From assembly GCA_041393775.1 (NCBI GenBank), contig JAWKJM010000005.1:2529-66528 (forward strand): a stretch of DNA of 64,000 bases, given 5' to 3'. Positions 4,342 to 46,261 of the stretch are shown here, one piece after another. Position 1 is the stretch's first letter. Each line of letters opens with the position of its first letter. The DNA comes from Candidatus Nanopelagicales bacterium. Its GTDB lineage: Bacteria; Actinomycetota; Actinomycetes; S36-B12; UBA10799. Position numbers and translations under genes: made by a program. A model generated the notes under the pieces. The model ran no database searches, was not told where the DNA came from, and was given only the letters and a program-made list of their open reading frames with translations.

Positions 4342-4544
4342 TCTGGTCCGAAAACGGCTCGTGTACTCGGTCGCCGGCGCTGGTCGCGAGGTTAGAGAAT
4401 GGTCGCGAGGTTAGAGATCGTGCACGAGGTTAGTGAACGCACGTGTGGCTTCTCTAACCTCGTGCACGATCTCTAACGCGAGCGGTATCCGCCCGGCATT
4501 TGCCCGCCTGAACGGGCGGCCGACCACGGCCGCGGATGACTAAC
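4342..4544 (+). repeat. Family-1 modular hairpin repeat, locus R1 (modules A, B, C)
   Basis: Reads GTCCGAAAACGGCTCGTGTACTCGG..CGCGAGGTTAGAGAA (x2). A hairpin follows: 28-nt arms at 4410-4437 and 4450-4477 with 27/28 complementarity, and a loop CGCACGTGTGGC. Module C follows, ending GATGACTAAC. Confidence 0.9.
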
Positions 4545-4645
4545 GGGAACGGGGTCAAGTCCTGCAGTGAGTCGGCCCGGTGAGAGTCGGATCCGGAGGT
4601 CCTAGGACCAAAGTCCAATTGTGCGGGAATCCTCCTGCGACCAGC

Positions 4646-5071
4646 ATGGGTGTTGTGGGAGGCAGAAGGACGACACTGGGTGCTGCGGCGATGGTTGCGG
4701 TGCTCTCGGCGTCGTTGGCCGCACCGGCGGCCGGACAGCCTCGGCCGAAGCCGCGACCCACCGGCGGTTCGGACACCATCGTCAGTTCCGGCGTGTGCGA
4801 CGCCGGGAGTACCTGGACGCTCACCGGGCGATCCCGATTCCTGCGAATCGTCGTAGGCGCTCGGGTCGACACCGACAGGGGCCGTCAGCGCTGGGTCCTG
4901 CGCATCAAGCGCGACCGGACAACCGTGGCCAGAGTCTCCCGCAAGTCCAACGGTCGAGGGGTGGTGCGAGTGAAGGGGAAGGTCCGCAACCGACCGGGCG
5001 CGGACACGTTCACGTTCATCGCACGCAACCGCACCTCTGCCGAGACCTGTCGGGGAACCCTGACGTTCTGA
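4646..5071 (+). CDS. Secreted hypothetical protein (beta-rich, two Cys)
   Basis: In-frame ATG at 4646 within ORF 4580..5071 gives a signal-peptide-like N-terminus MGVVGGRRTTLGAAAMVAVLSASLAAPAAG. No family recognised. Confidence 0.6.
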   Translation: MGVVGGRRTTLGAAAMVAVLSASLAAPAAGQPRPKPRPTGGSDTIVSSGVCDAGSTWTLTGRSRFLRIVVGARVDTDRGRQRWVLRIKRDRTTVARVSRKSNGRGVVRVKGKVRNRPGADTFTFIARNRTSAETCRGTLTF

Positions 5072-5099
5072 ATCAGCGAGACAGGAGAGGGAGAAGGAC

Positions 5100-5672
5100 A
5101 TGAAGTCATCACGAGTCATCGCCGCAGCGACCGGAGTCATGATCGGCGTGGGCGGCATCTTGCCTGCAGCCAACGCCCAGCCACCCGCTGCCGTGAGTAC
5201 ATTGGTGGCTGCTGGGCACGGGCAGGACTGGGGACTGAAGCAGGCCCGCCAGCAGTTCCGCATCGATGTGAAGCGAGCCAACAAGGAATACCGCACCGAC
5301 GTCCGCAAGGCGCGCAGGGAGTTCCGCAAGGACATCCGCGAGGCCCGGCATGTGTCACAGGCGAAGTACCAAGAGGCACGTAAGCAGTTGCGTGCGGCAC
5401 TGCGAACCGCCCGGGGGGCCTTTCACACCGCCATCAAAGAGGCCAACGAGATCTTCCAAACCAGCGTCGCCGACAGCCGCGCCGCGTTGTTGAAGGTTCT
5501 GAAGGATCCGGCCTCGACCATGGAGCAGCGCAAGGCGGCGATAGCGACCTACCGGGCTGACACCAAGACTGCACGGGAAGCCCGCCACACGGCGATCAAG
5601 AAGGCGATCGCCAAGTACAGGGACGACCGCAAACAAGCGCGCGCGGCGTTCCGGGTCGCGATCGGCAAGTAG
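5100..5672 (+). CDS. Secreted alpha-helical protein built of 11-residue repeats
   Basis: SD GGAGAGGGAGAAGGAC precedes the ATG. Signal peptide MKSSRVIAAATGVMIGVGGILPAANA. At least 8 consecutive 11-mers follow (LKQARQQFRID, VKRANKEYRTD, VRKARREFRKD, IREARHVSQAK ...). Confidence 0.75.
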   Translation: MKSSRVIAAATGVMIGVGGILPAANAQPPAAVSTLVAAGHGQDWGLKQARQQFRIDVKRANKEYRTDVRKARREFRKDIREARHVSQAKYQEARKQLRAALRTARGAFHTAIKEANEIFQTSVADSRAALLKVLKDPASTMEQRKAAIATYRADTKTAREARHTAIKKAIAKYRDDRKQARAAFRVAIGK

Positions 5673-5682
5673 TGCGCCCAGG

Positions 5683-5719
5683 CATCCCGTCCACTGGCAG
5701 AAGCCCAGCGGGCGGGATG
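5683..5719 (+). terminator. Putative stem-loop terminator after the 5100..5672 gene
   Basis: Arms CATCCCGTCCACTGG (5683-5697) and CCAGCGGGCGGGATG (5705-5719) form a 15-bp stem with one wobble and one mismatch. There is no U-tract. Confidence 0.45.
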
Positions 5720-5789
5720 TCGCATGTCTGGTGCCCCAAACACGCGGGCGGGTTAGGAATATCAGACCTGCGCGTGGGGACAATGACCT

Positions 5790-7082
5790 ATGGCTGAGCC
5801 ACCAGGCGGCAATCCGCGCGCGATCGTGCGGCGCGAGGTACTGCGGTTCGCGATCCCGGGCGCCATCGGGATGGTGTTGCTCGCCTTGGCCAGTCTTGCG
5901 ATCTCTGCTGCGGTAGCCCGTGAGCAGTCCGTCAGCGATACCCGCACCACCGCCGAGTGGTTGGCCCGGACCGTGGTGGAGCCCAGAATCGACAAAGGAC
6001 TCCAAGCGGGCAAGCCCGCGCGCATCGCGGAACTCGACGCAGCGTTCTCCGCGTCGGTCCGGGATTCCGACGTCAGGGCAGTGCGCTTGTGGAACGAGGA
6101 CGGGGTCATCATCTATGCCAATGACCCCCGGCTCATCGGTGAGCATTTCCCGGCGCCGGCCGCGACAACCGATGGCCCGGAGGAGACGATCACGGATCCG
6201 AGTCGACCGGAGAACCGCTACTTGGACCCGGATGTCGATTGGGTTCAGGTGAGTCTGCCTGTCGTCGGCGGCGACGGTTCCCACTACCTGTTCCAGGTCA
6301 GCAAATCTCAGGACACCCTGAGCCAGGACGCCCGCAGTGTCTGGACGGCGTTCGCGCCTCTTCTGGCGGGGTCCATGGTGCTTCTGGCCACGTTGCTGGG
6401 GCTCTTGGGCGTCCGTATGGCCAAGCGCATCAGCGATGAACTGCGTACCCGTGAGGAACTGCTGCAGAGCGCGATGGACGCCTCTGAACTGGAACGCCGC
6501 CGGATCGCCGCGGACCTGCATGACGGCACTGTGCAGAAGCTCGCCGGGTTGTCCTTCGGGCTCGCGGGGATGGCGGCTCGCGCGGATGCAGCCGGTGATC
6601 ACGACTCCGCAACCCTGTTGTCGGACGCAGCGCAGGCCTCACGGGCATCGGTGCGTGATCTCCGCACGCTGCTTGTGGACATCTACCCACCCAATCTCGA
6701 GACTTCGGGGCTGGCCCCCGCCATTGCCGCTCTGCTGGACGGTCTGGAGCCGGGCATCGTCGTAGATTCCGACCTCAGTGAACTCCCAGACCTGGACCCG
6801 GGAGCGCGCACGGTGCTGTACCGGGTTGCCCGGGAGGCGATCGCCAACGTGTCCAAACACGCTGGGGCGTCTCATGTGGTCGTCCGCCTCACCGAGGCGG
6901 TGGACACCGTGGTGCTGAGTGTCGAGGACGACGGGCACGGGTTCGACCCGGACGTCGAACGTCCCGGCCACCTCGGACTGCGGCTCGTCGACGATCTCGT
7001 CACCTCCATCGGCGGCAGGCTCACGGTTGACAGCGCGCCGGGGGCAGGAACGCGTGTGACTGTAAGCGTGGAGCCGCGATGA
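5790..7082 (+). CDS. Sensor histidine kinase (HisKA_3 / NarL-partner type) with an extracytoplasmic sensor domain
   Basis: 430-aa ORF. Two TM segments flank a roughly 150-aa loop. H-box ERRRIAADLHDGTVQKLAGL. The HATPase_c part includes DDGHGF and GLRLV. Confidence 0.9.
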   Translation: MAEPPGGNPRAIVRREVLRFAIPGAIGMVLLALASLAISAAVAREQSVSDTRTTAEWLARTVVEPRIDKGLQAGKPARIAELDAAFSASVRDSDVRAVRLWNEDGVIIYANDPRLIGEHFPAPAATTDGPEETITDPSRPENRYLDPDVDWVQVSLPVVGGDGSHYLFQVSKSQDTLSQDARSVWTAFAPLLAGSMVLLATLLGLLGVRMAKRISDELRTREELLQSAMDASELERRRIAADLHDGTVQKLAGLSFGLAGMAARADAAGDHDSATLLSDAAQASRASVRDLRTLLVDIYPPNLETSGLAPAIAALLDGLEPGIVVDSDLSELPDLDPGARTVLYRVAREAIANVSKHAGASHVVVRLTEAVDTVVLSVEDDGHGFDPDVERPGHLGLRLVDDLVTSIGGRLTVDSAPGAGTRVTVSVEPR

Positions 7083-7708
7083 TCAAAGTGGTACTGGTCG
7101 ACGACCACCGCGTCGTGGTCGAGGGACTGCGTCTGCTCATCGACGCGTTCGACGACGTCGAAGTGGTGGGTTCGGCCACCGATGGCCGTGCCGGAGCCGA
7201 TCTGGTGAACGCTCTGCGCCCGGATGTCGTCCTGATGGACCTGTCCATGCCGGTGATGGGCGGTGTCGAGGCCACTCGCGCTATCAATGAGGCAGCTCCT
7301 GGAACCGCAGTGGTGATGCTCACCACGTTCGCCGAGCCCGAGCAGGTGCTGCACAGCCTCGACGCCGGCGCAGTCGGTTACCTCATGAAGGATGCCGAAC
7401 CTCAGACCCTGGTCGATGGCATCCGGGCGGCCGCAGCAGGGGGGTCGCCGATCGACCCGCGGGTGGCGCGCACATTGGTCGAGGCGCGGCGTGCAAGCGC
7501 TGTGCTGGAGGATCCGGAGCTGACCGCAAAGCAGCGGGAGGTACTGGGGTTGGTCGCCGAGGGCCTGCCGAACCGACTGGTGGCCAAACGGCTCGGCGTG
7601 AGTGAGAAGACCGTCAAAGCCCATCTCACACAGATCTACGCCGCGATCGGGGTCACCGACCGGGTCCAGGCGGCGCTATGGGCGCGGGACCACCTGTCCG
7701 AATCCTGA
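7079..7708 (+). CDS. Response regulator, NarL/LuxR family
   Basis: The receiver domain starts VVLVDDHRVV and includes DVVLMDLSMP. C-terminal LuxR HTH reads LTAKQREVLGLVAEGLPNRLVAKRLGVSEKTVKAHL. There is a 4-nt overlap with the kinase gene. Confidence 0.93.
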   Translation: MIKVVLVDDHRVVVEGLRLLIDAFDDVEVVGSATDGRAGADLVNALRPDVVLMDLSMPVMGGVEATRAINEAAPGTAVVMLTTFAEPEQVLHSLDAGAVGYLMKDAEPQTLVDGIRAAAAGGSPIDPRVARTLVEARRASAVLEDPELTAKQREVLGLVAEGLPNRLVAKRLGVSEKTVKAHLTQIYAAIGVTDRVQAALWARDHLSES

Positions 7709-7860
7709 CCCCGTGCAGCGTCGGTCCACGTGCCGTTCTGACGGGGGCCTGTGCGACCGCCCGACCTCGCGAAGTGGACGCGGCGCCGAGCGGTGCGGGC
7801 CGGACGGGGCAAGGTCGTTCCCGACGCGGTGGTGACCGCGACTGTTTCTGCCGAATGATC

Positions 7861-8170
7861 CGCAGGAGCTGGCCGCGAGGTCAGAGAAAGTGCACGAGGT
7901 GTTCGTTCTCTAGTCCGAAAATGGCTGGTGTACTCGGTCGCCGCAGAAGTGGGCCGCGAGGTTAGAGAATGGTCGCGAGGTTAGAGATCGTGCACGAGGT
8001 TAGTGAACGCACGTGTGGTTTCTCTAACCTCGTGCACGTTCTCTAACCCGAGCGGTTTGCGCCCGGCATTTCCCCGCCTGAACGCGGCGGCCGGCCACGG
8101 CCATGCACCACCAACGCGAGCGATCTCCGCCCGTCTGAACGCCGCGGCTGACCACAGCCGCGGAGGCTAC
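7861..8170 (+). repeat. Family-1 repeat, locus R2 (a degenerate A-B unit lacking the hairpin tip, a full A-B unit, and two C modules)
   Basis: 7861-7912 reads GGCCGCGAGGTCAGAGAAAGTGCACGAGGTGTTCGTTCTCTA, that is, the arms without the loop. A full copy follows, with hairpin GTGCACGAGGTTAGTGAACGCACGTGTGGTTTCTCTAACCTCGTGCAC, then two C modules. Confidence 0.9.
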
Positions 8171-8269
8171 GCGAACCGGCCGGGCAAACGGCAACCGTCC
8201 GACCGCGGACGCCCGTTCGGACAGGTATCCGATGCTGGCGGCGATACGCTCGAACAGGAGGTGTTCGCA

Positions 8270-9091
8270 ATGAAGGTGTCCGGCAAGGTCTGGGTGATCA
8301 CCGGCGGTGGCAACGGCATGGGACGCGAGTTGGTGCTGAGTGTCTTGCGAGACGGTGGCCGGTTTGCTGCCGTCGATGTCCGCGCCGAGTCGCTGCAGGA
8401 GACCGCCGCGATGGCGTCCGCGGGCGATCGGTTGTCCACGCATGTCGTCGATATCACCGATCGCGTGGCGGTGGAAGCGCTCGTCGAGCCGGTCGTCGAT
8501 GCACACGGCGCGGTGGATGGGGTGATCAACAACGCAGGCGTCATCCAGCCGTTCATCCCGGTCAAGGATCTGGACTATGGAGCAATCCAGCGGGTACTGG
8601 ACGTGAACCTGATGGGCACCTTGTACATGGTGAAGGCTTTCCTGCCCGCCTTGCTCGAACGACCCGAGGCGCACATCGCGAACGTGTCCAGCATGGGCGG
8701 GTTCTTCCCGTTCCCCGGCCAGAGCATTTACGGCGCGAGCAAGGCCGCCGTCAAGTTGCTGACCGAAGGTCTCTACGCAGAACTGCTGGACACTACGGTC
8801 AACGTGTCGGTCATCATGCCTGGTGCCGTGAACACTGGCATCACGGAGAACTCGGGGGTGTCCACGCCCGCCGCGGATGATGCGGCCGGCATGCCCATGA
8901 CCTCGGCGCAGGATGCCGCCCGGATCATGATCGACGGCATCGAGAAGAACCGGCTGTACATCTTTGTCGGCAAGGACGCCCGGCTGATGAACCTCGCGAT
9001 CCGGATAGCCCCGCGGCAGGCGATCGGCTTCATACAGAAGAAGATGAAGGGCCTGCTGCAGAGCGGTTCCGATGTGAACCAGCGAAACTGA
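8270..9091 (+). CDS. SDR family oxidoreductase
   Basis: Internal ATG at 8270, preceded by SD AGGAGG. The N-terminus MKVSGKVWVITGGGNGMGRE carries the TGxxxGxG motif. YGASKAA is the catalytic YxxxK. The ORF-track extension back to 8003 runs through repeat R2. Confidence 0.9.
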   Translation: MKVSGKVWVITGGGNGMGRELVLSVLRDGGRFAAVDVRAESLQETAAMASAGDRLSTHVVDITDRVAVEALVEPVVDAHGAVDGVINNAGVIQPFIPVKDLDYGAIQRVLDVNLMGTLYMVKAFLPALLERPEAHIANVSSMGGFFPFPGQSIYGASKAAVKLLTEGLYAELLDTTVNVSVIMPGAVNTGITENSGVSTPAADDAAGMPMTSAQDAARIMIDGIEKNRLYIFVGKDARLMNLAIRIAPRQAIGFIQKKMKGLLQSGSDVNQRN

Positions 9092-9133
9092 CGATGGGGT
9101 GCGGGGTGGGAGACGGCCCCGCGAGCCGGTCGA

Positions 9134-12737: not shown

Positions 12738-12764
12738 ATTGACACCTTATCCTAACGAGGCGTA

Positions 12765-14906: not shown

Positions 14907-15026
14907 CGCTTCAGCCTGATCGCGGCCACTACAGGTGCTGATTGCCTGCGATTGAGCGGAGCGGCGGGTTGGACCCAAGGGTTCGCGGTCTGCAGAAGGT
15001 AACCTCTGGTCGAACGGAGCCCAAGG

Positions 15027-15318
15027 TCTGGTCTGAGAACGGCTTGCGTACTCGGTAGCCGCGGGAGTCGGCCGCGAGGTTAGAGATCGTGCACGAGGTT
15101 AGTGAACGCACGTGTGGCTTCTCCAACGCCGTGCACGTTCTGTAGTCCGAAAATGACTGGTGTACTCGGTCGCCGCAGAAGTTGGCCGCGAGGTTAGAGG
15201 TCGTGCACGAGGTTAGTGAATGCACGTGTGGCTTCTCTAACCTCGTGCACGTTCTCTAACCCGAGCGGTTTCCGCCCGGCATTTCCCCGCCTCAACGCCA
15301 CGGCCGCGGATGACCAAC
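15027..15318 (+). repeat. Family-1 repeat, locus R3 (two tandem A-B units and one C module)
   Basis: There are two copies of ..GTACTCGGT..GGCCGCGAGGTTAGAG..GTGCACGAGGTTAGTGAA.GCACGTGTGGCTTCTC... The first right arm is mutated (CTCCAACGCCGTGCAC). The locus ends GATGACCAAC. Confidence 0.9.
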
Positions 15319-15402
15319 CGAAACGCGGGTGCCGAGCCGAAACCCGGGGGAACGGCCAACGGCGCCTGTTCGGCGGCCCGCCGTAGGGCTGTACCCAGCG
15401 AA

Positions 15403-19373: not shown

Positions 19374-19519
19374 TCAGGCGCAGCCGTCACCGTCGCCTCC
19401 GTGTGCTGTCGGCGGTCAGTGCCTCCTCGCCGGCGCGATGGGCCAGCACGGCAGAGTCGGTCTCCCAGCGAGAGTCCCTCGTGGTCTGCGCCGGCCCGCC
19501 CATTCCAGGTTCTCGGCAT

Positions 19520-19778
19520 GAGTCCATCCGCGGCCGTGGCGTTCAGGCGGGGAATACCGGGCGCCAGTTCGCTCGCGTTAGTGGTGCATGGTCGTGGCCG
19601 GCCGCGGCGTTCAGGTGGGGAAGTGCCGGGCGGAAACCGCTCGGGTTAGAGAATGTGCACGAGGTTAGAGAAGCCACACGTGCGTTCACTAACCTCGTGC
19701 ACAATCTCTAACCTCGCGACCATTCTCTAACCTCGCGACGCACTCCTGCGGCTGGTGAGTACACGGGCCGTCCTCGGC
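19520..19778 (-). repeat. Family-1 repeat, locus R4 (reverse orientation; two C modules, B, A)
   Basis: Reverse complement of the consensus. Reads GTGCACGAGGTTAGAGAAGCCACACGTGCGTTCACTAACCTCGTGCAC, then TCTCTAACCTCGCGACCATTCTCTAACCTCGCG. Confidence 0.9.
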
Positions 19779-19910
19779 ATCCGACCTGCTGGAGAGCCAA
19801 CCCGTAGGAGAGGGGCAGTGTGCGGCTGGGACCCAGTGGCCCGTCGGCGCGCGCGTCGAGGGCTTCGACACGGCCTTCCATATCGGCCCCCAACCGGATT
19901 GACTGGAGGC

Positions 19911-24816: not shown

Positions 24817-25049
24817 GACAGGCTCCGGCGCTCGCCGCGTGGTCGCCCTTCAGCGTCCTCGGTGTCGTGCTGGACTTGATCAGTCAACGCCGGTGCAGCC
24901 GCGTTCGGGCTGGAGGTATGTCATTGCGCTGGTCGAGCGTACCGTTGTGCCGGCCGGCGCTGAACGTCCCTGAAATGCACGAGTCGCATCGAAGGTCGCA
25001 CCGCCAGCACAAGTGCACCGTCAGGCGAGGTTGCCCCAACGTGATTTGG

Positions 25050-25129
25050 CGGTGAGGTTAGAGGACGTTCACGAGGTTAGAGAAACCACGCGTGGAATCT
25101 CTAACCTCGTGAACGTCCTCTAACCTCGC
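25050..25129. repeat. Family-1 repeat, locus R5: hairpin-only variant, near-perfect 78-bp palindrome
   Basis: Reads GTGAGGTTAGAGGACGTTCACGAGGTTAGAGA-AACCACGCGTGGAA-TCTCTAACCTCGTGAACGTCCTCTAACCTCGC. The arms match 31/32. The centre is ACGCGT instead of CACGTG. Confidence 0.9.
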
Positions 25130-25192
25130 TTCGGGAAGCGCAGGGGTCGGCTGGCGGAGTGTGGGTGTGACTGGTCACCAAAGACCGCCTCC

Positions 25193-27489: not shown

Positions 27490-27703
27490 GCCTCGCCGTT
27501 CTGGTTGAACAGTCCCGTCCGCGTTTGCCTCAATCCGCCGGTGATCTTGTTGTGTAGGTCGGTGCAGGGGGAAACGGCCGCCGAAGAACGGGCGTCCCGG
27601 ACACTTTCAAAGCCGCAAGCAGAGGCATCCTGGTGACGCCCGGTGTGGGTTGCGTTCAGCGTCCGATAGGCCCCATCGAACGAGGCGATCTCGATTCGAA
27701 CCA

Positions 27704-28081
27704 ACCCGAAAACGGCTCGTGTACTGGCCACGGGAGTTGGCCGCGAGGTTAGAGAACGCGCACCAGGTTAGTGAATGCACATGTGGCTTCTCTAACCTCG
27801 TGCACGTTCTCTAGTCCGAAAATGGCTGGTGTACTCGGTAGCGGCAGGAGTGGGCCTCGAGGTTAGAGAATGGTCGCGAGGTTAGAGATCGTGCACGAGG
27901 TTAGAGAATGCACGTGTGGCTTCTCTAACTTGGTGCACGTTCTCTAACGCGAGCGGTTTCCGCCCGGCATTTCCCCGTCTGAACGGGCGGCCGGCCACGG
28001 CCATGGACGACTAACGCGAGCGGTTTCCGCTCGGCATCCTCCCGTCTGAACCGGCGGCAGGCCCGGCTATGGATGACCAAC
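27704..28081 (+). repeat. Family-1 repeat, locus R6 (largest copy: two A-B units and two C modules)
   Basis: Two hairpins were read (..CACCAGGTTAGTGAATGCACATGTGGCTTCTCTAACCTCGTGCAC.. and ..GTGCACGAGGTTAGAGAATGCACGTGTGGCTTCTCTAACTTGGTGCAC..). Two C modules follow, ending GATGACCAAC. Confidence 0.9.
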
Positions 28082-28279
28082 GCGAACGGCCGGGCCTGAC
28101 CCGGGCCGGGGAGGTCGAACGCGAACACGCGCAGTCTCATCCGAGGCGGACGCGTTCGTGTTCGATTACCTCAGCAGATGCGCGAGCCTCAGGCGGCCCG
28201 ATTCTCGCTGCGGCGGTTGCCGCATGGTCTCGACGCGGTGGGTCGAAACCCGCTCCGGCAGACCGCATACCCTGACCCC

Positions 28280-29179: not shown

Positions 29180-30511
29180 TTGAGCCTCTTTCGCCGGCTG
29201 CAAGGGTGCTCCGGAGGCTGTGTTCGCACTATGCCAGGACGTTCCCCCTTGGCCGATGAGGTGATGCACGGCCACTTCCGGCAGGGCCTGCACGTGTTGG
29301 CTGTGGCACAACGCGCATTGGCTGACGACCAGATGGCGCCGGCCTCTGACATGCAACTCCTGGGACTGCTGGCATTCGAGGACCCGCCCCGAGACGGTGT
29401 GGCCGCGGCGATTGCGGAGTGCCGACGGGCGGGCGTGCGCTTGGCGATGATCACAGGAGACCGTCCAAGGACGGCACGGGCGATCGCTTCCGAGATTGGG
29501 TTCACGCTGCCGGATTCACCCGTCGTGCTCGGTAGCGACCTGCCCGAAGACGACGCGGAGTTGGGCGAGGTTGTCGATCACGACGGAGTGGTGCTAGCAC
29601 GGATCACGCCCGAGGCCAGACTGCGAGTTGCCTGTGCTTTGCGCTCCCGGGGGAACGTCGTGGCGATGACCGGAGACGGGGTCAATGACGCACCGGCGCT
29701 GCGGGAGGCGGACATAGGCGTGGCTATGGGGACCTCCAGCACCGATGTGGCGCGCGAGGCCGCCGATCTGGTCCTGCTCGATGACCACTTCGGGACGATT
29801 GTCGCCGCAATCAAACAGGGGCGAGGGACGTTCTTGAACGCCCGCCGGTTCCTGACCTATCACCCGACCGACAATGTTGCCGAACTGGCGCCCTTCATCG
29901 CGTGGGCCGTATCGGCGGCCCACGTCCCGCTGGCCCTGGGAGTGCCGCAGATCCTTGCACTGGACCTCGGAACCGACACCCTGCCCGCTATTGCGCTGGG
30001 CGCTGAACGACCCGCACCGGAGGTGCTCGACCACCCGCCGGTCTCCGGTGGCTTGCTCGACAGGGCAGTGGCGGCCCGGGCCTTCGGGGTGCTGGGCCCC
30101 AGTGAGGCGGTGATGGAACTCGCGGTGTTCGTGGCGGCGCTCGCGTGGGCGGGCTGGCGCCCCGGCCTCGACTGGCCGAGCGGCCACGCACTGCTCGCCG
30201 CGTCGGGAGCCGCCGTCCTGACCGTGGTCGTCATGCAGTGCGCGAATGCGTTCGCGGGCCGCAGCCTGCACCGACCGGTTTGGCAATTGCGGTGGAACGC
30301 CAATTGTTTCCTCTTGGTGGCAGTTGCCACGACTGTGGTATTCGCGGCTGTCTGTTTGGGGGTGCCTCTAGTGGCCGGTCTGCTGAGCCAGGCCACCCCG
30401 CCGCCAGCAGTGCTCCCGCTGATCGTCGTGGCGATTCCGGTCTTGTGGCTGGCAGACGCCCTATGGAAGTCGTGGTCGCGTCGGGGTGGGATTGCGGTCG
30501 GAAACACGTGA
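29180..30511 (+). pseudogene. 5'-truncated P-type ATPase (C-terminal half only)
   Basis: Retains the hinge motif MTGDGVNDAPALREADIGVAMG and the C-terminal TM helices. It lacks the actuator domain, the DKTGT phosphorylation site and the N-terminal TMs. Similarity begins near 29240, and nothing ATPase-like lies between 29006 and 29240. Confidence 0.7.
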
Positions 30512-30559
30512 GACGTGCGAAGGCATTCGGCCGGGCGTTCAGGCTGGGGTGAGCTGGTT

Positions 30560-30770
30560 GGAGATCGCTCGCATTAGTCGTCGATGGCCGTGGCCGGCCG
30601 CCCGTTCAGGCCGGAAAATTCCGGGCGGAAACCGCTCGGGTTAGAGAACGTGCACGAGGTTAGAGAAGCCACACGTGTGTTCACTAACCTGGTGCACAAT
30701 CTCTAACCTCCCGACCATTCTCTAACCTCGCGGCCCACTTCTGCGGCGACCGAGTACACGAGCCGTTCGC
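30560..30770 (-). repeat. Family-1 repeat, locus R7 (reverse orientation; C, B, A)
   Basis: Reads GTGCACGAGGTTAGAGAAGCCACACGTGTGTTCACTAACCTGGTGCAC, then TCTCTAACCTCCCGACCATTCTCTAACCTCGCGGCCCACTTCTGCGGCGACCGAGTACACGAGCCGTT. Confidence 0.9.
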
Positions 30771-30942
30771 GTCAGTCATCCGGGTCCGCGCTAGGCCAGT
30801 GGGAGGCCTCAGAGCCGAACCGGGTCCTGAAGGCCGAACCGGAACCAGAAGGTCTACCCGGAGCCGGTCCCGAGGTCACCCCGTAGCAGGTGGTCCCGGC
30901 GCGCAGACCGCCGCAACTTCATCAGCGGGAGAAACCGCCAAG

Positions 30943-34539: not shown

Positions 34540-34556
34540 GTCCACCACCATAGCAC

Positions 34557-34649: not shown

Positions 34650-34913
34650 ATCTTGTGGTCTCCGTGGCCGCGGCGTTCAGGCGGGCAGATGCCGGGCGGA
34701 GATCGCTGGTGCTGGTCATCCGCGGCGGTGGTCGGCCGCCCGTTCAGGCCGGAGGTGCCGAGCGAAAATCGCTCGCGTTAGAGAACGTGCACGAGGTTAG
34801 AGAAGCCACACGTGTGTTCTCTAACCTCGTGGTCGTTCTCTAACCTCGCGGTCAACTCCTGCGGCTACCGAGTACACGACACGTTCTCTAACCTCGCGGT
34901 CAACTCCTGCGGC
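34650..34913 (-). repeat. Family-1 repeat, locus R8 (reverse orientation; two C modules, B, and a duplicated A-proximal segment)
   Basis: Reads GTGCACGAGGTTAGAGAAGCCACACGTGTGTTCTCTAACCTCGTGGTC. The segment GTTCTCTAACCTCGCGGTCAACTCCTGCGGC then occurs twice. Confidence 0.88.
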
Positions 34914-34965
34914 CAGTGGGCACAAATGGTCCAACGCGAGCCGGAAGGCTGAACGACTGCCCGCC

Positions 34966-38966: not shown

Positions 38967-38991
38967 GAGCCGCTCGCGGTTCTGCCTACCC

Positions 38992-39110: not shown

Positions 39111-39162
39111 CGTAGGACGCCCGCCCGGGCATCGGCTCGGGCGGGCGCAGACGTATCCGCGA

Positions 39163-39366: not shown

Positions 39367-39508
39367 ATCGGTTCCCTTCTTGTTGGTATCCGGGCAATAC
39401 CCCGGGTTCTGGTGGTCAGACCCGACATGGGGTGTGACCTGCGCAACATGTGCTCTCCGGTTAGAAGTGCGCTGGCGGGGAACAAGGCGGCAAAGGAAGG
39501 AGCAGACG

Positions 39509-39775: not shown

Positions 39776-39790
39776 GTGAAGGGAGTTTCG

Positions 39791-40069
39791 ATGTCGATGC
39801 AGAAGGATGCCGCAAGGTGGTCGTCGGAAGGTGGCGCCGACCCGTCGGGCCCGGCCACCGAGCTCCCCGCACAGCAGGCCGGCGATATCCCCGAACCGCC
39901 GGGGACTCCTGACCAGGTTGATGAACCGCCACTGGCACAAGCGCAGAGCCCGCTGCTCGGCGACAACTTGGCAGCGCACGAAACCGCACCCGAGGAAATC
40001 GGGGGGAACGGCTCGGCACGAATCCATATGAAGAACCGAACGCCCATCACACCACCGGAGGAACGATGA
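39791..40069 (+). CDS. Pro/Glu-rich hypothetical protein (92 aa)
   Basis: ATG at 39791 follows SD GAAGGGAG (MSMQKDAARWSSEGGADPSG...). The sequence is low complexity. Confidence 0.45.
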   Translation: MSMQKDAARWSSEGGADPSGPATELPAQQAGDIPEPPGTPDQVDEPPLAQAQSPLLGDNLAAHETAPEEIGGNGSARIHMKNRTPITPPEER

Positions 40070-40212
40070 AACTCTTAGGACTGCTGACCCTGCTCGGTAT
40101 CGGTGCTGCAGCAGGTGCGTATTTCAGCCGCCGGATGCAGCCCGGCCAGTCTCCTGCGGGCTCGCCCGCGGTTCCACTGGTTTCGGTGCCCACGGTTCGG
40201 GAGGCGCAGTGA
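40066..40212 (+). CDS. Small membrane protein (48 aa)
   Basis: Own translation gives MKLLGLLTLLGIGAAAGAYFSRRMQPGQ..., with SD GGAGGAA 3 nt upstream. It overlaps the previous gene by 4 nt. It is below the ORF-track size cut-off. Confidence 0.5.
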   Translation: MKLLGLLTLLGIGAAAGAYFSRRMQPGQSPAGSPAVPLVSVPTVREAQ

Positions 40213-40376
40213 GCCTTTGGGATGACCTCAGATACCGAGTGAAGAAGAGTCTGCTGTTCGTCTACGGACCCGCGGACCTTGACACGGAGCGCGATCCCAG
40301 CGCGAGGCTGGACCGCGAACACGACGAGGGCCGGAGGGCCGGCACCGAGTCCGGCAAGGACTGGGACAAGGGCTGA
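40209..40376 (+). CDS. Small charged hypothetical protein (55 aa)
   Basis: Own translation from GTG at 40209 gives VSLWDDLRYRVKKSLLFVYGPADLDTERD..., with SD GGGAGG upstream. There is a GTGA overlap with the previous ORF. Confidence 0.4.
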   Translation: MSLWDDLRYRVKKSLLFVYGPADLDTERDPSARLDREHDEGRRAGTESGKDWDKG

Positions 40377-40377
40377 G

Positions 40378-41019
40378 TCAAGCGGAGGCCGCCGCCCGGC
40401 GTCTCTCGTCCGCAGTGGGGCGCAATGCCGCGGCAGCGATGAGGAAGCCGACGGCGCCGAGCAGCGTGCCCAGGTTGTCCCACCGCAGGTTCTGGAACGT
40501 CCCGTCCGGGAGCATCTTTGCCCCCACGGCCGACAGTCCGAAGAAGACCGAGCCGAGCATGTTGGCCCAGCAGATCAGCCGTGATCGACCGTGTAGCAGA
40601 TGATGGCGATGCTGGCGGGCTATGGGATGCCAGGCGATCCAGCTGGAGATCAGGAACAGCAGGGATCCGATCACATCCGGGTGCCAGACGCGATCGTAGT
40701 CAGCGCTCGAAGCATCGATCGCCTGCCACAGCGCACGGATGGTCATGACGTTGAAGAACAGCGTTCCCACGAACTGGATGACGGCGCTCATCCAATCGGG
40801 GTCTCGTAGTCGGGATGGCATGGGCTTGTCCGCGGCGGCTCGCCACTGCACGGCCGCGGCGGTGGTGAACAGCACTGCGCCGAGCGCGAAAACGATGCCG
40901 ATCGCTACATCGTTCGCCTCCGCGACCGCCATGATCGCCCCCAAGCCGAACAGCACAGATCCGGTCCCGAACCCCAGAGCCATGGTCTGGAGCTGACGGG
41001 TCTCGCGGGTGTTCTGCAC
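40378..41019 (-). CDS. Integral membrane protein, unknown function
   Basis: 213 aa with about six hydrophobic helices. No family recognised. Confidence 0.6.
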   Translation of the reverse strand: MQNTRETRQLQTMALGFGTGSVLFGLGAIMAVAEANDVAIGIVFALGAVLFTTAAAVQWRAAADKPMPSRLRDPDWMSAVIQFVGTLFFNVMTIRALWQAIDASSADYDRVWHPDVIGSLLFLISSWIAWHPIARQHRHHLLHGRSRLICWANMLGSVFFGLSAVGAKMLPDGTFQNLRWDNLGTLLGAVGFLIAAAALRPTADERRRAAASA

Positions 41020-41116
41020 GATCCGAATCTAGGTGATCGCGGCCTCTGCCTCCTCATCGGACACCGGCTGTGAGCTCGATCGGCAAGCGCTGGCCCATCT
41101 CGCCTACCCTCAGCGC

Positions 41117-43198
41117 ATGCCACTCATCGAGGTGATCGAGTCCGAACAGTCACTCTTCGCGCTGCACACCGACCACACGTCATATGTGTTCGCCGTCGCC
41201 GAGACCGGCCTGCTGCGCCATCTGCATTGGGGGGCTCGCATTCCCGCGGCCGACGTGATCCGGGAGCCGCTCTGGGCGCTGTCGACCAATGATCTGATCA
41301 ACGATGTCACGCCCCAGGAGTACCCGCCCCATGGCAGGTTCCGGTACAACGAGCAGTGTCTACGGGCACGCTTCCCGGACGGGGGCCGGGAGGTCGAACT
41401 GGCATACACCGGGTACCGGCGCACCGACCACGAGCTGGTGGTCGATCTTCATGACCCCAAGGGCCTGGCGGTCGAACTGCACTACGAGGTGCTTGCGGAG
41501 ATCGATGTGATCCGGCGCTGGGCCAGCATCACCGCGTCGATTCAGGGGGTTGTTCTGGAATCAGTGGCGTCGGCGCAGTTGAACATCCCGTTCGGCGACC
41601 TCACCTTGCGCAACGTGCAGGGGCATTGGGGCGCAGAGCAGCAGGAGCTGATTCAAACCGTGGCAGGGAAGATGGTGCTCGAAGCCAGGCGCGGAATCTC
41701 GAACCACCATCACAGCCCCTACGCGGTCCTGAGCAAGGAGGCAACGCAGACCTGCGGACGCGTGTGGGCTGGAGCGCTGAGCTTCAGTGGCAACACCAAG
41801 ACCGTGGTCGAGCAGACCCAGTACGGCCAGACACTTGTCCAGTTGGGGATCAACGACTTCGACTGCGAGATTCCTCTGACTCCGGGGGAGCCCTTCGTGA
41901 CTCCTTCGGTGGTCGCGGTCTACACCGAAGCGGGACTCGACGGTGTCAGTCGATGCCTGCACGCCTACGGCGAGACACTGATGTCTCCGCAGGTGCGCCC
42001 AGTCCTCTACAACTCCTGGGAGGCCACGAACTTCGCCGTGAGCAGCGACGGCCAACTCGAACTCGCCGACCTTGCGGCTGCTGTCGGTGCCGAGTTGTTC
42101 GTCGTCGATGACGGCTGGTTCGGCCGGCGCAACCCCGACGAGACAGGAGGGATCCACGATGGGCTGGGCGATTGGTGGGTCGACCCGGTCAAATTCCCGC
42201 AGGGCCTCGGGCCGCTGATCGAGCGCGTCCAGGAACGCGGGATGAGTTTCGGGATCTGGGTGGAGCCGGAGATGGTCAACCCCGACTCGGACCTGTTCGC
42301 GGAGCACCCGGAGTGGATCTACACGGAGCCGGGCCGGGAGGTGGACACCGCCCGTGGGCAGTATGTCCTGGACCTCACCCGCGCAGAGGTGCAGGAGTTC
42401 ATCGTCGCCACGCTCGACGGACTGCTGACCGGCAACGACATCGCCTATGTGAAGTGGGACGCCAATCGCCCGATGTCTCAGATCGGTGCGCGCCGCGACG
42501 CGTGGTACGGACACATTCAGTCGCTCTATGACGTCGTGCGGGAGATCAAGCGGCGGCACCCGAATGTGCTGATCGAGGCCTGCGCTTCGGGTGGCGGCCG
42601 GATCGACTTCGGCGCTCTGGAGGTCTTCGACGATTTCTGGACCAGTGACAACACCGACGCGCTGGACCGGCTGGAGATCCACCGCGCGTACTCCCTGGTC
42701 TATCCGCCGCGCGCCATGCGCGCCTGGGTGACCGATGTCCCCAATTTCTTGTCGCAGCGCTCGATTCCGCTGAAATTCCGGTTCCACAGTGCGATGCTCG
42801 GCAGTCTCGGGATCGGCTGCGACCTCACCAAGATGACCGAGAAGGAACTGAAGCAGTCCGCGAAGTTCGTCGCGGAATACAAGGGGCTGCGACCGTTGAT
42901 GCGCCGCTTCCACCGTCTGGAGAACCCCTCCTCGAACGACTACCGGCTGTTCCAGTACTCCTCGTCGGAGGGGGCGGTGCTGTTCGCGTTCCTGCCGGCC
43001 AGCCGACTGGGCCACAAGCCGACCACGGTGCGCCTGCGCGGTCTCGAACCCACTGCGCGCTATCGGTTCACCCATGACTGGCAGAAGCATGAGACGACCG
43101 GCGAGTACCTCATGAACCGTGGTCTGCGGTTGTGGCTGCAGGGTGACTACGCAAGCACTGTGGTCCGTTTCGACAAAGTCACAGAAGCCACGGGATGA
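41117..43198 (+). CDS. GH36 alpha-galactosidase
   Basis: Internal ATG at 41117 gives MPLIEVIESEQSLFALHTDHTSY. Contains FVVDDGWFG and the catalytic region YVKWDANR, typical of GH36. Confidence 0.88.
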   Translation: MPLIEVIESEQSLFALHTDHTSYVFAVAETGLLRHLHWGARIPAADVIREPLWALSTNDLINDVTPQEYPPHGRFRYNEQCLRARFPDGGREVELAYTGYRRTDHELVVDLHDPKGLAVELHYEVLAEIDVIRRWASITASIQGVVLESVASAQLNIPFGDLTLRNVQGHWGAEQQELIQTVAGKMVLEARRGISNHHHSPYAVLSKEATQTCGRVWAGALSFSGNTKTVVEQTQYGQTLVQLGINDFDCEIPLTPGEPFVTPSVVAVYTEAGLDGVSRCLHAYGETLMSPQVRPVLYNSWEATNFAVSSDGQLELADLAAAVGAELFVVDDGWFGRRNPDETGGIHDGLGDWWVDPVKFPQGLGPLIERVQERGMSFGIWVEPEMVNPDSDLFAEHPEWIYTEPGREVDTARGQYVLDLTRAEVQEFIVATLDGLLTGNDIAYVKWDANRPMSQIGARRDAWYGHIQSLYDVVREIKRRHPNVLIEACASGGGRIDFGALEVFDDFWTSDNTDALDRLEIHRAYSLVYPPRAMRAWVTDVPNFLSQRSIPLKFRFHSAMLGSLGIGCDLTKMTEKELKQSAKFVAEYKGLRPLMRRFHRLENPSSNDYRLFQYSSSEGAVLFAFLPASRLGHKPTTVRLRGLEPTARYRFTHDWQKHETTGEYLMNRGLRLWLQGDYASTVVRFDKVTEATG

Positions 43199-43643
43199 TC
43201 CTGGCCCGGACCCGGTGGCAGTAGGCCTCGTAGCCCGGATAGTGTGCGCGCAGCCAGTGTTCCTCGACGTGCGCCTTGCCCAGCCACCACACCAGCAGCA
43301 CCGTCAGTGCGACCAGCCCCCACCACGAGCCGACCAGGCACAGGCCGAGCAGTGCGAGTAGCGCCGAGGAATAGATGGGATGGCGCACGATGCGATACGG
43401 ACCGTGCTCGACGAGTTCCGCCCTCGACCTGGGTTTCGGGAATGGACTCAGTGAGGCTCCGAGAGTCCGCAGCGACCACCAGCCCAACGCCGCCCCGAGA
43501 ATCAGCAAAGCGCCGCCGATCCAGGTGCTGCCGGGCCAGGCCCACCGCGGTCCCGCCGCCGCCGTGACGACCACTACGGCGGCCAGCAGGAACTGGCCCC
43601 ACACCCAGCCTTGTCCGCGCCAACCCAGCCTGGGGATCTCCAA
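43179..43643 (-). CDS. Isoprenylcysteine carboxyl methyltransferase (ICMT)-family membrane protein
   Basis: Contains LVEHGPYRIVRHPIYSSALL. The preferred start is TTG at 43643, preceded by a strong SD GAAGGAGGA. The ORF-track start at 43766 would overlap the marR gene. Confidence 0.75.
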   Translation of the reverse strand: MEIPRLGWRGQGWVWGQFLLAAVVVVTAAAGPRWAWPGSTWIGGALLILGAALGWWSLRTLGASLSPFPKPRSRAELVEHGPYRIVRHPIYSSALLALLGLCLVGSWWGLVALTVLLVWWLGKAHVEEHWLRAHYPGYEAYCHRVRARIIPWLL

Positions 43644-43707
43644 GCGTCCTCCTTCGTCGAAAGCATGGTCGCACTTCCATGCGGCCCGAATCGGTACAGT
43701 GCCTACC

Positions 43708-44157
43708 ATGACCCGTTGGCTGTCCGCATCCGAGCAGCAATACTGGCGCTCGTGGATCTCGGCCAACCTACTGCTCCGAGACCGGCTGGGACGGGATCTG
43801 CAGCGCGACGCTGGACTGACTCTTGCCGACTACGAGATCATGGTGCGTCTGTCGGAGTCCCCCCGACGGCGCATGCGGATGAGCGACCTGGCGGAGGTGA
43901 CACTGTCCAGTCGCAGTCGGCTGTCCCATCAGATCGACCGGATGCAGAAGGCGGGTTTTGTCGACCGCCAGGAGTGCGAGAACGATCGGCGCGGCTACTA
44001 CGCCGTCCTTACCGACGCCGGGTACGACGCACTGGTCGAAGCCGCCCCGAAGCATGTGGACAGTGTGCGCCGCCGGATCGTCGACGTGCTGACGCCCGAG
44101 GAGTTCGCCGAGTTCGGCCGGCTGAACCAGAAGCTTCTGGACGCGCTCGAGGACTAG
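43708..44157 (+). CDS. MarR family transcriptional regulator
   Basis: Internal ATG at 43708. The winged HTH reads LTLADYEIMVRLSESPRRRMRMSDLAEVTLSSRSRLSHQIDRMQKAGFV. A -10-like TACAGT ends 7 nt before the ATG, so the transcript may be leaderless. Confidence 0.88.
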   Translation: MTRWLSASEQQYWRSWISANLLLRDRLGRDLQRDAGLTLADYEIMVRLSESPRRRMRMSDLAEVTLSSRSRLSHQIDRMQKAGFVDRQECENDRRGYYAVLTDAGYDALVEAAPKHVDSVRRRIVDVLTPEEFAEFGRLNQKLLDALED

Positions 44158-44247
44158 GTTCCCGTTGCAGCTGGCGGCCGCGTCGCGCTGAGTACCTGCC
44201 CGCGCCGTTCGGGCCGCATCGGCAGTAACGAGAGCTGCTGGGCTTCA

Positions 44248-44450
44248 TCCGAAGCGGCTCGTGTACTCGGTCGCCGCACAAGTGGGCCGCGAGGTTAGGG
44301 AATGGTCGCGAGGTTAGAGATCGTGCACGAGGTTAGTGAACGCACGTGTGGCTTCTCTAACCTCGTGAACGTTCTCTGGTCCGAAAATGGCTGGTGTACT
44401 CGGTAGCGGCAGGAGTTGGCCGCGAGGTTAGAGAATGTGCACGAGGTTAG
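44248..44450 (+). repeat. Family-1 repeat, locus R9 (an A-B unit, then a second A-B unit cut in its left hairpin arm by the IS)
   Basis: Contains a full hairpin GTGCACGAGGTTAGTGAACGCACGTGTGGCTTCTCTAACCTCGTGAAC. The second unit ends abruptly at GTGCACGAGGTTAG (44450). Confidence 0.9.
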
Positions 44451-46096
44451 CCCAGATCTTTCATCTGCTGGCTGACGCGGCTGGTGTGGGGGGTGTTGGG
44501 ACTGGCGTTGTTCTGTGTCGTGACCGGGGCGTGGCTTGCTCCCAGCGCTGCGGTTCGCTGGTGCTTCCGGTGTGTGGTCGGGGTGTGGTGTGGGGTGGTC
44601 TGTCGGCGGTTCAGAGCGCGGCGAGTCGGTGGTGGGCTTGGCGTATCAGGTCGGCCCAGGGCCACTTGTCGCTGATCCGAAGGGTGTGTCTTCGACCGCT
44701 GCGGATGATCCGCCCGGCGACCGCCAGGATCCTGAACCGCAGGGTTTTCGGTGACCAGACCCTAGCGTGTTCGTGGTCGCGCCAGGCGAGTTGCTGGGTC
44801 CAGGTGAGCAGCTGGCAGGCCAGCAGACACAGTTCCAGCCATAGCGCGTTCTTGGCCATGGAGTGCAAGGGCAGGTTGTCCGCGCCGGTGGCTTTGAGGT
44901 CACGGATCCGGTCCTCGGCACGCGCGCGCTGCCGGTGGCGGTATTCCAGGTCGGCTGGGCGTCCGGGGCTGTTCGTGACGAACAGTGTGACCCGCCAGCC
45001 GTCGTCCTCCCCGATCCGCAGCTGTGCGCCCGGATGGGCCTTCTCCCGGCGGGCGATCACCCGCATCCCGGCCGGCCACGCCACACGGAACCGGGCCGGC
45101 AACCAGGTAGTCAGCTCGGCGACGTAGGCGTTCGGGCGCGGCGCGCCGTGGGCGTCGACGGCTTTGCGCCAGGCCTGCCGCGGGGTCGCCGCCAGCGCTT
45201 CTTGCAGCCCGGCGTGCACCGTGATCCCGGTGGAGTACTGCAGCCCCAGAGCAACAACGTGGGCCAGGAACTGCTTGGTCCCGCCGGCGCCATCGGCGCG
45301 CACCAGCACCTGGCTACGGCAGTGTGCTGGCAGTTGGGCCAGTGCCGCGTCGAGCACCGCGATGTGATCACCCTGCGTGGCCGACCCGGCGTTGCCGGGG
45401 CGCAGCAACCCGACCAGCGGCTCCCCGGTGCCACCCCCGCCGTGATCCACCAGCCCCAGCAGCGGGTGGAACCCGAACCCGCGTTTGTAGGTAGCCGCTG
45501 CGCCTTCCTTGTCCGAATGCGACCCGATCAGGGTGGCGTCGAGGTCGACCACCACCTGCCCGGCGCCGTCCAACGGGTCCACCCGCTCCCAGACCCCGAC
45601 CCGCGCCGAGGCCGCTGCCGCCCGGACCGCGCTCAGCGCCGCCGCCGTGGCCTGCTCGGTGGCGGTCAACGCGTCGAACAGCCGCGACACCGTCGGGTCC
45701 GAGGCCACCGCCCCGAACAGCTGCGGCTGGGCGCGCAGCACCCCCAGATCAGCCAGGCAATCCCCACCGACCGCGATCGTGATCGCCAGGTCCAGCAGCA
45801 CCTTGCCCGGGTCATGACGGGCCCTGTCAGAGCAGAACCCGGCCAGGCCCTCGGACAACGCCGCGGCCAGCCCGCTGACCTGCGCGGTCTGCACCAGCAG
45901 CCGCGCCCCGGCAGACGACACCAGCGCGTCCTGGCCGGCTTCAACACGAATCGTCGGATACGAGATACCGTTCACCTACGGAGTGCCTTTCCTTCGACAC
46001 GGATTTATGGCTTCAGCACCACAAATTCTCTCGAAAGAACAGGCACTTCCGTCTATTCACACGCCGCTCACACCAGCACCACATGCAAGATCTGGG
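44451..46096 (-). mobile_element. IS1380-family insertion sequence (1646 bp)
   Basis: The terminal inverted repeat CCCAGATCTT occurs at 44451-44460, and as its complement at 46087-46096. A 4-bp direct duplication TTAG lies at 44447-44450 and 46097-46100. Joining the flanks restores the family-1 hairpin. Confidence 0.88.
44611..45975 (-). CDS. IS1380-family DDE transposase
   Basis: 454 aa. The N-terminal region ...HDPGKVLLDLAITIAVGGDCLADLGVLRAQPQLFGAVASDPTVSRL is characteristic of IS1380 transposases as I recall them. Confidence 0.85.
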   Translation of the reverse strand: MNGISYPTIRVEAGQDALVSSAGARLLVQTAQVSGLAAALSEGLAGFCSDRARHDPGKVLLDLAITIAVGGDCLADLGVLRAQPQLFGAVASDPTVSRLFDALTATEQATAAALSAVRAAAASARVGVWERVDPLDGAGQVVVDLDATLIGSHSDKEGAAATYKRGFGFHPLLGLVDHGGGGTGEPLVGLLRPGNAGSATQGDHIAVLDAALAQLPAHCRSQVLVRADGAGGTKQFLAHVVALGLQYSTGITVHAGLQEALAATPRQAWRKAVDAHGAPRPNAYVAELTTWLPARFRVAWPAGMRVIARREKAHPGAQLRIGEDDGWRVTLFVTNSPGRPADLEYRHRQRARAEDRIRDLKATGADNLPLHSMAKNALWLELCLLACQLLTWTQQLAWRDHEHARVWSPKTLRFRILAVAGRIIRSGRRHTLRISDKWPWADLIRQAHHRLAAL

Positions 46097-46245
46097 TTAG
46101 TGAATGCACGTGTGCCTTCTCTAACCTCGTGCACGTTCTCTAACGCGAGCGGTTTCCGCCCGGCATTTCCCGCCCGAATGGGCGGCCGACCACCGTCATG
46201 GACCTCTAACGCGAGCGATCTCCGCCCGGCTTTCTCCCGCCTGGC
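46097..46245 (+). repeat. Family-1 repeat, locus R10 (remainder of the interrupted hairpin, plus two C modules)
   Basis: Reads TTAGTGAATGCACGTGTGCCTTCTCTAACCTCGTGCACGTTCTCTAAC, then GCGAGCGGTTTCCGCCCGGCATTTCCCGCCCGAATGGGCGGCC.. and a second, more degenerate C module. Confidence 0.9.
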
Positions 46246-46261
46246 CCAAAGGGAACGGCGG

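Follow-up and report, generated by a model that had tools for sequence, protein, structure and literature searches.

What kind of sequence recurs in the same modular form between unrelated genes of an uncultured actinobacterium, and what has carried it there? This question is raised by a 64-kb stretch of DNA from Candidatus Nanopelagicales bacterium (contig JAWKJM010000005.1, positions 2,529 to 66,528; 66% GC over its whole length), hereafter the window, to which all coordinates refer. The original prediction for this stretch had listed ten copies of a composite built from three modules, A, a hairpin B and C, whose labels R1 to R10 are retained here. The described sequence is present in all ten ranges, which correspond to nine loci, R9 and R10 being parts of one element split by an insertion sequence (IS) of the IS1380 family. 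The family is new, lineage-restricted and non-coding, and it belongs to a kind of bacterial repeat that is already familiar from BOX, bacterial interspersed mosaic elements (BIMEs) and miniature transposable elements with inverted repeats (MITEs) and is not a new kind of system. As for its origin, we consider it probable that the composite is a non-autonomous, non-coding interspersed mosaic repeat specific to this lineage, comparable in its logic to BOX and BIME, which has spread by means of a function provided in trans.

A modular hairpin repeat in excess over chance

The most conspicuous part of the composite is module B. This near-perfect palindrome has a 68-nt core, in which 28-nt arms flank a 12-nt centre containing the sequence CACGTG. 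The palindrome is composed of 19-bp units (consensus about CGYGCACGAGGTTAGAGAA), with two to three direct copies, CGCGAGGTTAGAGAATGGT, CGCGAGGTTAGAGATCGTG and CACGAGGTTAGTGAACG (U1, U2 and U3), preceding the centre and two inverted copies following it. The core of the unit, GAGGTTAGAGA, is almost invariant and the spacing between units is exactly 19 bp, with the first unit (ending in AATGGT) being present or missing as a clean block of this length. The 27 of 28 complementary positions predicted for the arms of R1 were recovered, and pairing in the family ranges from 20 to 27 of 28. Across 12 copies, 91.7% of the stem cells are paired, compared to 30–46% in a slid register. Four stem pairs have changed on both sides, three of them in R5 and one, from C-G to T-A, in R4, a number that was reached in 11 of 500 shuffles, some changes in the stem being compensatory or of the G-U wobble type. 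In most copies, two T·T mismatches occupy the same fixed positions, which is indicative of a common descent from a single master sequence. The stability of the hairpin is reflected in fold energies far below those of shuffled sequences (z = -11.7 for R5 as DNA, z = -5 to -6.5 for R1 as RNA), in case of R1 on either strand. The GC content of the lone hairpin R5 is 54%, compared to 66% in the genome.

Modules A (about 40 bp) and C (about 67 bp) surround the hairpin in a fixed order. In the fullest copies, R6, R9/R10 and, with a damaged first unit, R2, this order is A1-B1-A2-B2-C1-C2, amounting to about 390 bp. The internal A2, with its signature AAAATGGCTGGTG, is 87–94% identical among R2, R3, R6 and R9/R10, and the leftmost A copies (ending in ACGGCTCGTG) are more diverged than A2, whereas the second C carries the signature GCGATCTCC in R2, R7, R8 and R9/R10. 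Since these position-specific subtypes of A2 and C2 are common to different loci, the composite has spread as a unit and was not doubled locus by locus. The doubling of A-B claimed for R3, R6 and R9 stands; the partly deleted doublet in R2 had been overlooked. Similarly, the range assigned to R7 (30560–30770) contains the sequence and extends further left, to about 30534, into a degenerate second C. Several copies terminate with a repeat of the initial ~10 nt of A (about SCGARAACGG), and R6 and R7 also start with the last 6–12 nt of module C, these elements being slightly larger than one unit. The singlets R1, R4 and R7, the internally duplicated R8 and the lone hairpin R5 seem to have arisen by deletion or by recombination among internal repeats.

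The stable folding of the hairpin might suggest that the family consists of genes for small RNAs or of RNA elements acting in cis and that its function resides in the transcribed A-B-C structure. Besides the low energy of R1 on both strands and the compensatory or wobble changes in the stem, the transcription of pneumococcal BOX elements (PMC3184786) would be in line with this proposal. However, both strands fold equally well, as would be expected for a palindrome in DNA, and a scan of the region 4–20 kb, which covers R1–R4, revealed no sigma-70-like promoter match in the elements. The CCGCCCG/CGGGCGG stem that had been attributed to module C is by inspection visible in only about 5 of 14 copies, and a conserved fold of this module was dropped in light of a weak consensus energy (-2.8 kcal/mol for 12 copies) and the lack of any support by covariation. 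An apparent pairing of A with C in the RNA fold of R1, which was considered as a pair of terminal inverted repeats, was rejected after alignment against shuffled sequences, as it lacks significant complementarity. Finally, a scan of the whole window against Rfam at gathering threshold gave no match, and in a search of R6 with E-values up to 10, only generic look-alikes below threshold emerged, mostly hairpins of microRNA precursors with 12–22 bits compared to thresholds of 50–88. We thus regard a function as RNA family as very improbable.

The abundance of the family by far exceeds chance. The motif GGTTAGAGA is found 33 times in the window, compared to 0.13 times on average and at most twice in 100 shuffles, and a 32-nt pattern, AGGTTAGWGAANNCACRYGTGNNWTCTCTAAC, matches 12 hairpins with up to two mismatches where none would be expected. 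The same organization was independently detected by Tandem Repeats Finder, which identified arrays of the 19-bp unit (about three copies), the 114-bp doubling of A-B in R3 and the 67-bp doubling of C in R6. A covariance model of module B, whose construction the original prediction had proposed, finds 11 full copies and the lone R5 with 101–129 bits in the whole window, and it also picks up the damaged first unit of R2 and both halves of R9/R10. Altogether, the nine loci lie within 42 kb and sum up to about 2.35–2.5 kb or 3.7–3.9% of the window, close to the 4% that had been estimated.

As the window originates from a metagenome-assembled genome, in which repeats can be mis-assembled, and as all of its copies are found within 42 kb, an artefact of assembly or a segmental duplication confined to this contig had to be considered. 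The latter had been named as the finding that would argue against a new family. Both are scarcely conceivable and are already effectively refuted. Short-read contigs from Logan, which were found via three proteins of the window in at least 11 sequencing runs, reproduce the junctions between unique sequence and repeat with 98.9–100% identity. In the contigs L013–L022 (runs SRR28338158-172 and SRR32022410/564), which map onto 4493–33048, all checked ends are located within an element, at 4493 (R1), 7933 (R2), 25068 (R5), 27754/27795 (R6) and 30739 (R7). This demonstrates that the repeats are real and that short-read assemblies break at them, which makes the family a main cause of assembly fragmentation in this lineage. 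Moreover, three contigs flanking the IS (L001, L002 and L008) carry hairpin units next to sequences that are absent from the window. The family thus exists beyond the window, and several strains of the source organism share these samples.

Location between genes and insertion of an IS1380-family element

All copies reside outside genes, as had been proposed and as judged from GC content by codon position and from the location of Pfam domains, for R1 also from gene calls on a Logan contig. Long open reading frames (ORFs) assigned to SDR, ADH and ZnuA appear to overlap with elements, but their Pfam domains begin 78–97 residues into the translation, which places the true starts downstream of the element. 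The copies are found in convergent (R3, R7, R9/R10), co-directional (R2, R4, R6, R8 and probably R5) and divergent gaps (R1), in the orientations that were originally described (Table 1). Within co-directional gaps, R2, R6 and R8 are oriented with the genes and R4 is opposed, a bias that is not significant. The neighbouring genes encode DsbD/thioredoxin, a two-component system, SDR, hydrolases, ADH, oxoprolinase, DUF4386, YkuD, a P-type ATPase, MIP, ZnuA, GH1, MarR and ROK proteins. Since these belong to unrelated Pfam families that differ at each locus, a segmental duplication is excluded. The family explains most of the large intergenic gaps of the region.

Table 1. Copies of the repeat, their parts and the insertion sequence in the window.
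Feature	Coordinates	Strand	Description
R1	4335..4552	+	Singlet: A1, U1-U2-U3, loop, U3'-U2', one C; ends in a short repeat of the A start, GGGAACGG
R1 hairpin core	4410-4477		27/28 paired
R2	7845..8185	+	Doublet; first A-B unit partly deleted (7851-7929); tail GCGAACCGGCCGGGC
R2 A2	from 7913
R2 hairpin core	7980-8047
R2 C1	8048-8115
R2 C2	8116-8170		GCGATCTCC subtype
R3	15016..15325	+	Doublet A1-B1, A2-B2, then one shortened C
R3 B1 hairpin core	15079-15146		20/28 paired
R3 B2 hairpin core	15193-15260		25/28 paired
R4	19516..19790	-	Singlet A1-U1-U2-U3-loop-U3'-U2'-C1-C2
R4 hairpin core	19645-19712		One compensatory C-G to T-A stem change
R5	25048..25131	.	Lone hairpin, two units and two inverted units, without A or C
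R5 hairpin core	25057-25124		27/28 paired; three stem pairs differ on both arms from other copies
R6	27699..28090	+	Most complete copy: A1-B1, A2-U1-B2, C1, C2; tail GCGAACGGCCGGGC
R6 B1 hairpin core	27748-27815
R6 B2 hairpin core	27881-27948
R6 C1	27949-28015
R6 C2	28016-28082
R7	30534..30785	-	Singlet A1-U1-U2-U3-loop-U3'-U2'-C1 and degenerate C2
R7 hairpin core	30640-30707		C-end fragment GGATGACTGAC precedes the A side of the element
R8	34650..34914	-	48-bp internal duplication (3' part of A and one unit); after the hairpin C1, C2 (CCAGCGATCTCC variant of the C2 subtype)
R8 hairpin core	34777-34844
R9	44244..44450	+	Left part of doublet: A1-U1-B1, A2, two units of the B2 left arm, cut after GAGGTTAG
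R9 B1 hairpin core	44313-44380
IS1380-family insertion	44451..46096	-	1,646 bp, ends CCCAGATCTT; not part of the repeat family
IS transposase gene	44611-45975	-	PF13701 (DDE_Tnp_1_4), E = 1.6e-70
R10	46097..46262	+	Right part of the R9 doublet: remainder of B2 (TTAGTGAA, loop, U3'-U2'), C1, C2; abuts the stop codon of a convergent ROK-family gene

The described location could reflect selection by the host, with the 19-bp units acting as binding sites for a regulator or nucleoid protein, or with the hairpin acting as signal for transcript ends or insulation, in which case the elements would be retained for their function and not by selfish spread. Such a role would account for the near-invariant core of the unit with its exact spacing, for the fixation of the elements in all sampled strains and for the fact that at least seven of the nine loci, probably eight as the gene to the right of R5 is uncertain, adjoin the 3' end of a gene. 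It could also relate to the 19-nt period, by which three direct units place a TAG stop in all three frames of their strand. In contrast, the presence of copies in both orientations, in three convergent gaps and one divergent gap, leaves no consistent position relative to promoters, and a binding-site model does not explain modules A and C with their position-specific subtypes. Neither is there any T-run following the hairpin in any copy, as an intrinsic terminator would have, nor any terminator-like site within R1–R4, the sole match in the region 4–20 kb (7825–7840) being located outside the element as originally delimited and outside the hairpin matches. These results agree with the original view that no single role as promoter or terminator fits the mixed gap types. 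Furthermore, two relatives with about 69% protein identity contain nothing similar in 42 kb, although older age would be expected of a function that is essential to the host. We therefore judge a host-selected cis element to be an unlikely explanation. Assignments as promoter, terminator, operator or integron attC site were rejected on anatomy and context, and a CRISPR array was rejected as the 19-bp units abut without spacers and are followed by inverted copies. No tRNA genes are found in the window.

The insertion that separates R9 from R10 displays the features of the IS1380 family, with a DDE_Tnp_1_4 transposase, a length of 1,646 bp within the expected range of about 1.6–1.7 kb, terminal inverted repeats that are short, and a target duplication of 4 bp, here TTAG at 44447–44450 and 46097–46100. 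The identical protein carries the name IS1380 family transposase at NCBI. As the IS is located inside a hairpin unit and its excision in silico restores a normal B2 hairpin, both parts constitute one element. The same transposase is encoded on ten short Logan contigs (L001–L010) with at least five distinct junctions, all at CTAA, CTAG or TTAG (YTAR), thus illustrating that this IS, with its 4-bp duplication, is present in multiple copies in the source population. Beyond the junction in the window, two further ones fall into hairpin units whose flanks are absent from the window. A specific targeting of the hairpin by the IS was considered and dropped in favour of the simpler preference for YTAR sites, of which 59 of the 103 in the window lie in elements. 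The elements are hot spots for the IS since they are rich in this motif, which is rare in this genome.

Other features of the region were noted independently of the family. The P-type ATPase close to R6 and R7 (29180–30511; 426 residues in its database entry) comprises only the HAD and C-terminal domains and is devoid of the N-terminal half. Its homologues in the two relatives are similarly short, with 359 (L011, 10001–11080) and 396 residues (L012, 10001–11191), and in L012 a separate N-terminal fragment is found upstream. This could reflect either a short form that is conserved or frameshifts in assemblies from long reads. Just past the A side of R7, a tandem repeat with 19-bp period (30814–30852; 2.1 copies of GCCGAACCGGAACCAGAAG) is unrelated to the family unit. 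Between the AMP-binding and DsbD/thioredoxin genes, a perfect 39-bp tandem repeat (1866–2005; 3.6 copies of CATGGCGTCGTCGCTCATCATCGCGTCGGGTGACTCGCT with 100% matches) is located in the overlapping ORFs 1834–2265 (+, no Pfam match) and 1851–2156 (-). The lack of any difference between the repeat copies hints at a very recent expansion or at an effect of the assembly. A further unrelated intergenic repeat (63020–63290), upstream of a gene starting near 63342, contains two repeated blocks, one of 81 nt with a spacing of 144 bp (99% identical) and one of 52 nt with a spacing of 115 bp (94% identical). Each block holds an inverted repeat, CGAAGGTG…CACCTTCG, without match in Rfam at gathering score.

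Spread of the composite and restriction to its lineage

The dispersal of composite copies with unrelated flanks suggests the following scenario for a mosaic repeat spread in trans, in which the element would be mobile or spread by recombination, as originally proposed. The ancestral dispersed unit was the A1-B1-A2-B2-C1-C2 composite of about 390 bp or more, and complete copies of it were probably placed in the gaps that separate unrelated genes. Its internal repeats would then have recombined or slipped, which generated the singlets and the lone hairpin and caused the gain or loss of single 19-bp units. The copying presumably depends on a function acting in trans, most likely a protein recognising the hairpin or the array of units, whose gene would be located outside of the 64 kb. 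By analogy to known families, a transcript across B would form a long perfect duplex that could hold up exonucleases or recruit RNase III. At the same time, the AT-rich motifs TTAG/CTAA would make the elements preferred sites for the resident IS1380-type element.

Several observations weigh against this scenario, and they concern mobility in particular. The composite does not contain terminal inverted repeats, since at none of the nine loci does A match the reverse complement of C better than shuffled sequences. Marginal direct repeats at the ends were detected in R4 and in R6 (10 of 11 positions each, p ~0.04–0.06 uncorrected), which contain element consensus and thus are not clean target duplications, and none flank the remaining loci and the lone hairpin R5. 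In a scan of 30 ORFs of the window against Pfam, the IS1380-family transposase, whose IS ends are unrelated to the repeat, was the only one found, and there was no REP-associated tyrosine transposase (RAYT), recombinase or other candidate for the cognate enzyme that the original prediction had proposed to look for. The anticipated polymorphism between strains was also not observed, as the element is present at the five checkable loci in every strain sampled, at 98.9–100% identity, a result that is a consequence of the fact that every Logan contig ends in a repeat. Finally, the covariance model detects no further hairpin in the window, and its final 18 kb are empty.

Some of these observations also speak against an explanation as classical MITE, where B or the whole composite would be an internally deleted IS of the DDE type, with the unit arrays as inverted ends, which is mobilised by a full-length relative located elsewhere and generates target duplications. 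Module B is a long pair of inverted repeats that folds into a long stem-loop and that is found on its own in R5. Some transposon ends bear multiple transposase-binding sites, and the arrays of short sites at each end of B may be reminiscent of them. The size of 84–390 bp and the lack of coding capacity would also conform to the definition of a MITE (PMC3184786). However, besides the missing terminal inverted repeats of the composite, the lone hairpin is not flanked by a direct repeat, and A and C travel in fixed order outside of the inverted repeats, which would be unexpected for a MITE bounded by B. Moreover, there is no IS with matching ends in the window. A classical MITE is in our view improbable.

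Even less probable, but worth considering, is a mobile composite of about 390 bp, devoid of coding capacity, whose movement would follow a mechanism so far undescribed for small bacterial repeats. The repeat of the A start at the ends, combined with the bases of the C end at the start of R6 and R7, would fit a circular or tandem intermediate that integrates at a short core site. In such a case, the arrays of 19-bp units on both arms might provide the platform for a dedicated recombinase or a domesticated transposase. The conserved order of modules and the 19-bp arrays would, given a complete genome, offer a handle for finding the recognising protein, and the interest in the family would rise if that protein proved a hairpin-dependent recombinase of a new type.

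The restriction to the lineage is reflected in searches of other sequences. Exact patterns gave no match in one scan of GTDB representative genomes, which diverged relatives would escape, and in another scan of these genomes no copy was found among the matches listed. Searches with exact patterns in JGI metagenomes, using the 19-mer and a periodic two-unit pattern, and in viral contigs had no match either, with diverged relatives being missed by such patterns, and no match was obtained by blastn in plasmids and phages. Neither a copy nor a comparable family is found in the 21-kb loci of the two relatives (L011 and L012; 42 kb in total), and the best database match of one protein of the window, after the identical entry, is only 72% identical. 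In the literature searched, the papers containing the motif strings were all unrelated, and none came up that describes such an element, or such repeats for the Candidatus Nanopelagicales lineage. These searches agree with the original statement that the sequence was not recognised as a named family. Our results add to the catalogue of such elements a repeat family that is well defined and comes from an uncultured actinobacterial lineage of high GC content, and the family could also be used as a marker for strain typing.

Relation to known families of small bacterial repeats

The composite does not qualify, by the features compared, as a member of the MITEs, of the REP (repetitive extragenic palindrome) sequences or of any Rfam family, and it shares properties with several classes of repeats. 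The properties of REP/BIME, BOX and MITE are summarised in PMC3184786. Like REP, BIME and REPIN, the family combines extragenic palindromes with other short motifs in mosaics, and both are common next to the 3' ends of genes and between convergent genes and are targets of IS insertions (PMC3184786). In contrast to REPs, which are G+C-rich sequences of about 35 bp, the hairpin described here spans 68–106 bp and is below the genome in GC content, as exemplified by R5, and its 68-nt core exceeds the G+C-rich imperfect palindrome of about 20–40 nt that constitutes the basic unit of a REP. The GTAG/CTAC tetranucleotide of REPs is not conserved at the hairpin borders of the aligned copies that were inspected, where instead TTAG/CTAA recurs inside the arms. 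REP systems also comprise a RAYT, an IS200/IS605-like Y1 transposase whose gene is flanked by the repeats, which was not seen among the scanned ORFs of the 64-kb window. Like the present hairpin, a REPIN consists of two units in inverted orientation that fold together (PMC3184786, PMC3116915). Each arm of the present hairpin comprises several 19-bp units in place of a single REP.

Terminal inverted repeats and target duplications are the defining features of MITEs (PMC3184786). With Correia elements, RUP and other MITEs, the family shares its small size, the lack of coding capacity, the presence of multiple intergenic copies and long stem-loops. It differs from them in that the composite contains neither terminal inverted repeats nor a clear target duplication and that no duplication is visible at the lone hairpin. 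A comparison within the same phylum would be offered by the mycobacterial interspersed repetitive units (MIRUs), intergenic repeats of actinobacteria with units of 40–100 bp in variable tandem copy number. The tandem repeats of the 67-bp C and the 114-bp A-B are similarly intergenic and actinobacterial. MIRUs lie within operons in the orientation of the genes and carry small overlapping reading frames, whereas the elements described here occur in either orientation, also between convergent genes, and are rich in stop codons.

A close correspondence in organization is seen with the BOX elements of Streptococcus pneumoniae, and the comparison to BOX and BIME made in the original prediction was fair. 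BOX elements, which span 67–637 bp (PMC3184786), consist of boxA, boxB repeated n times and boxC. Both families are non-coding and intergenic, contain three types of modules in fixed order, of which middle or later ones vary in repeat number, and are of comparable length with 84–390 bp in the present case. Both are also predicted to adopt a stable secondary structure and are non-autonomous, without an enzyme of their own. In contrast to BOX, the central module of the family is a long palindrome of 19-bp units, A-B is doubled as a pair with C being doubled separately, and A and C are not complementary. The likeness is thus confined to the modular logic, and kinship in sequence would not be expected between an actinobacterium of 66% GC and a low-GC firmicute.

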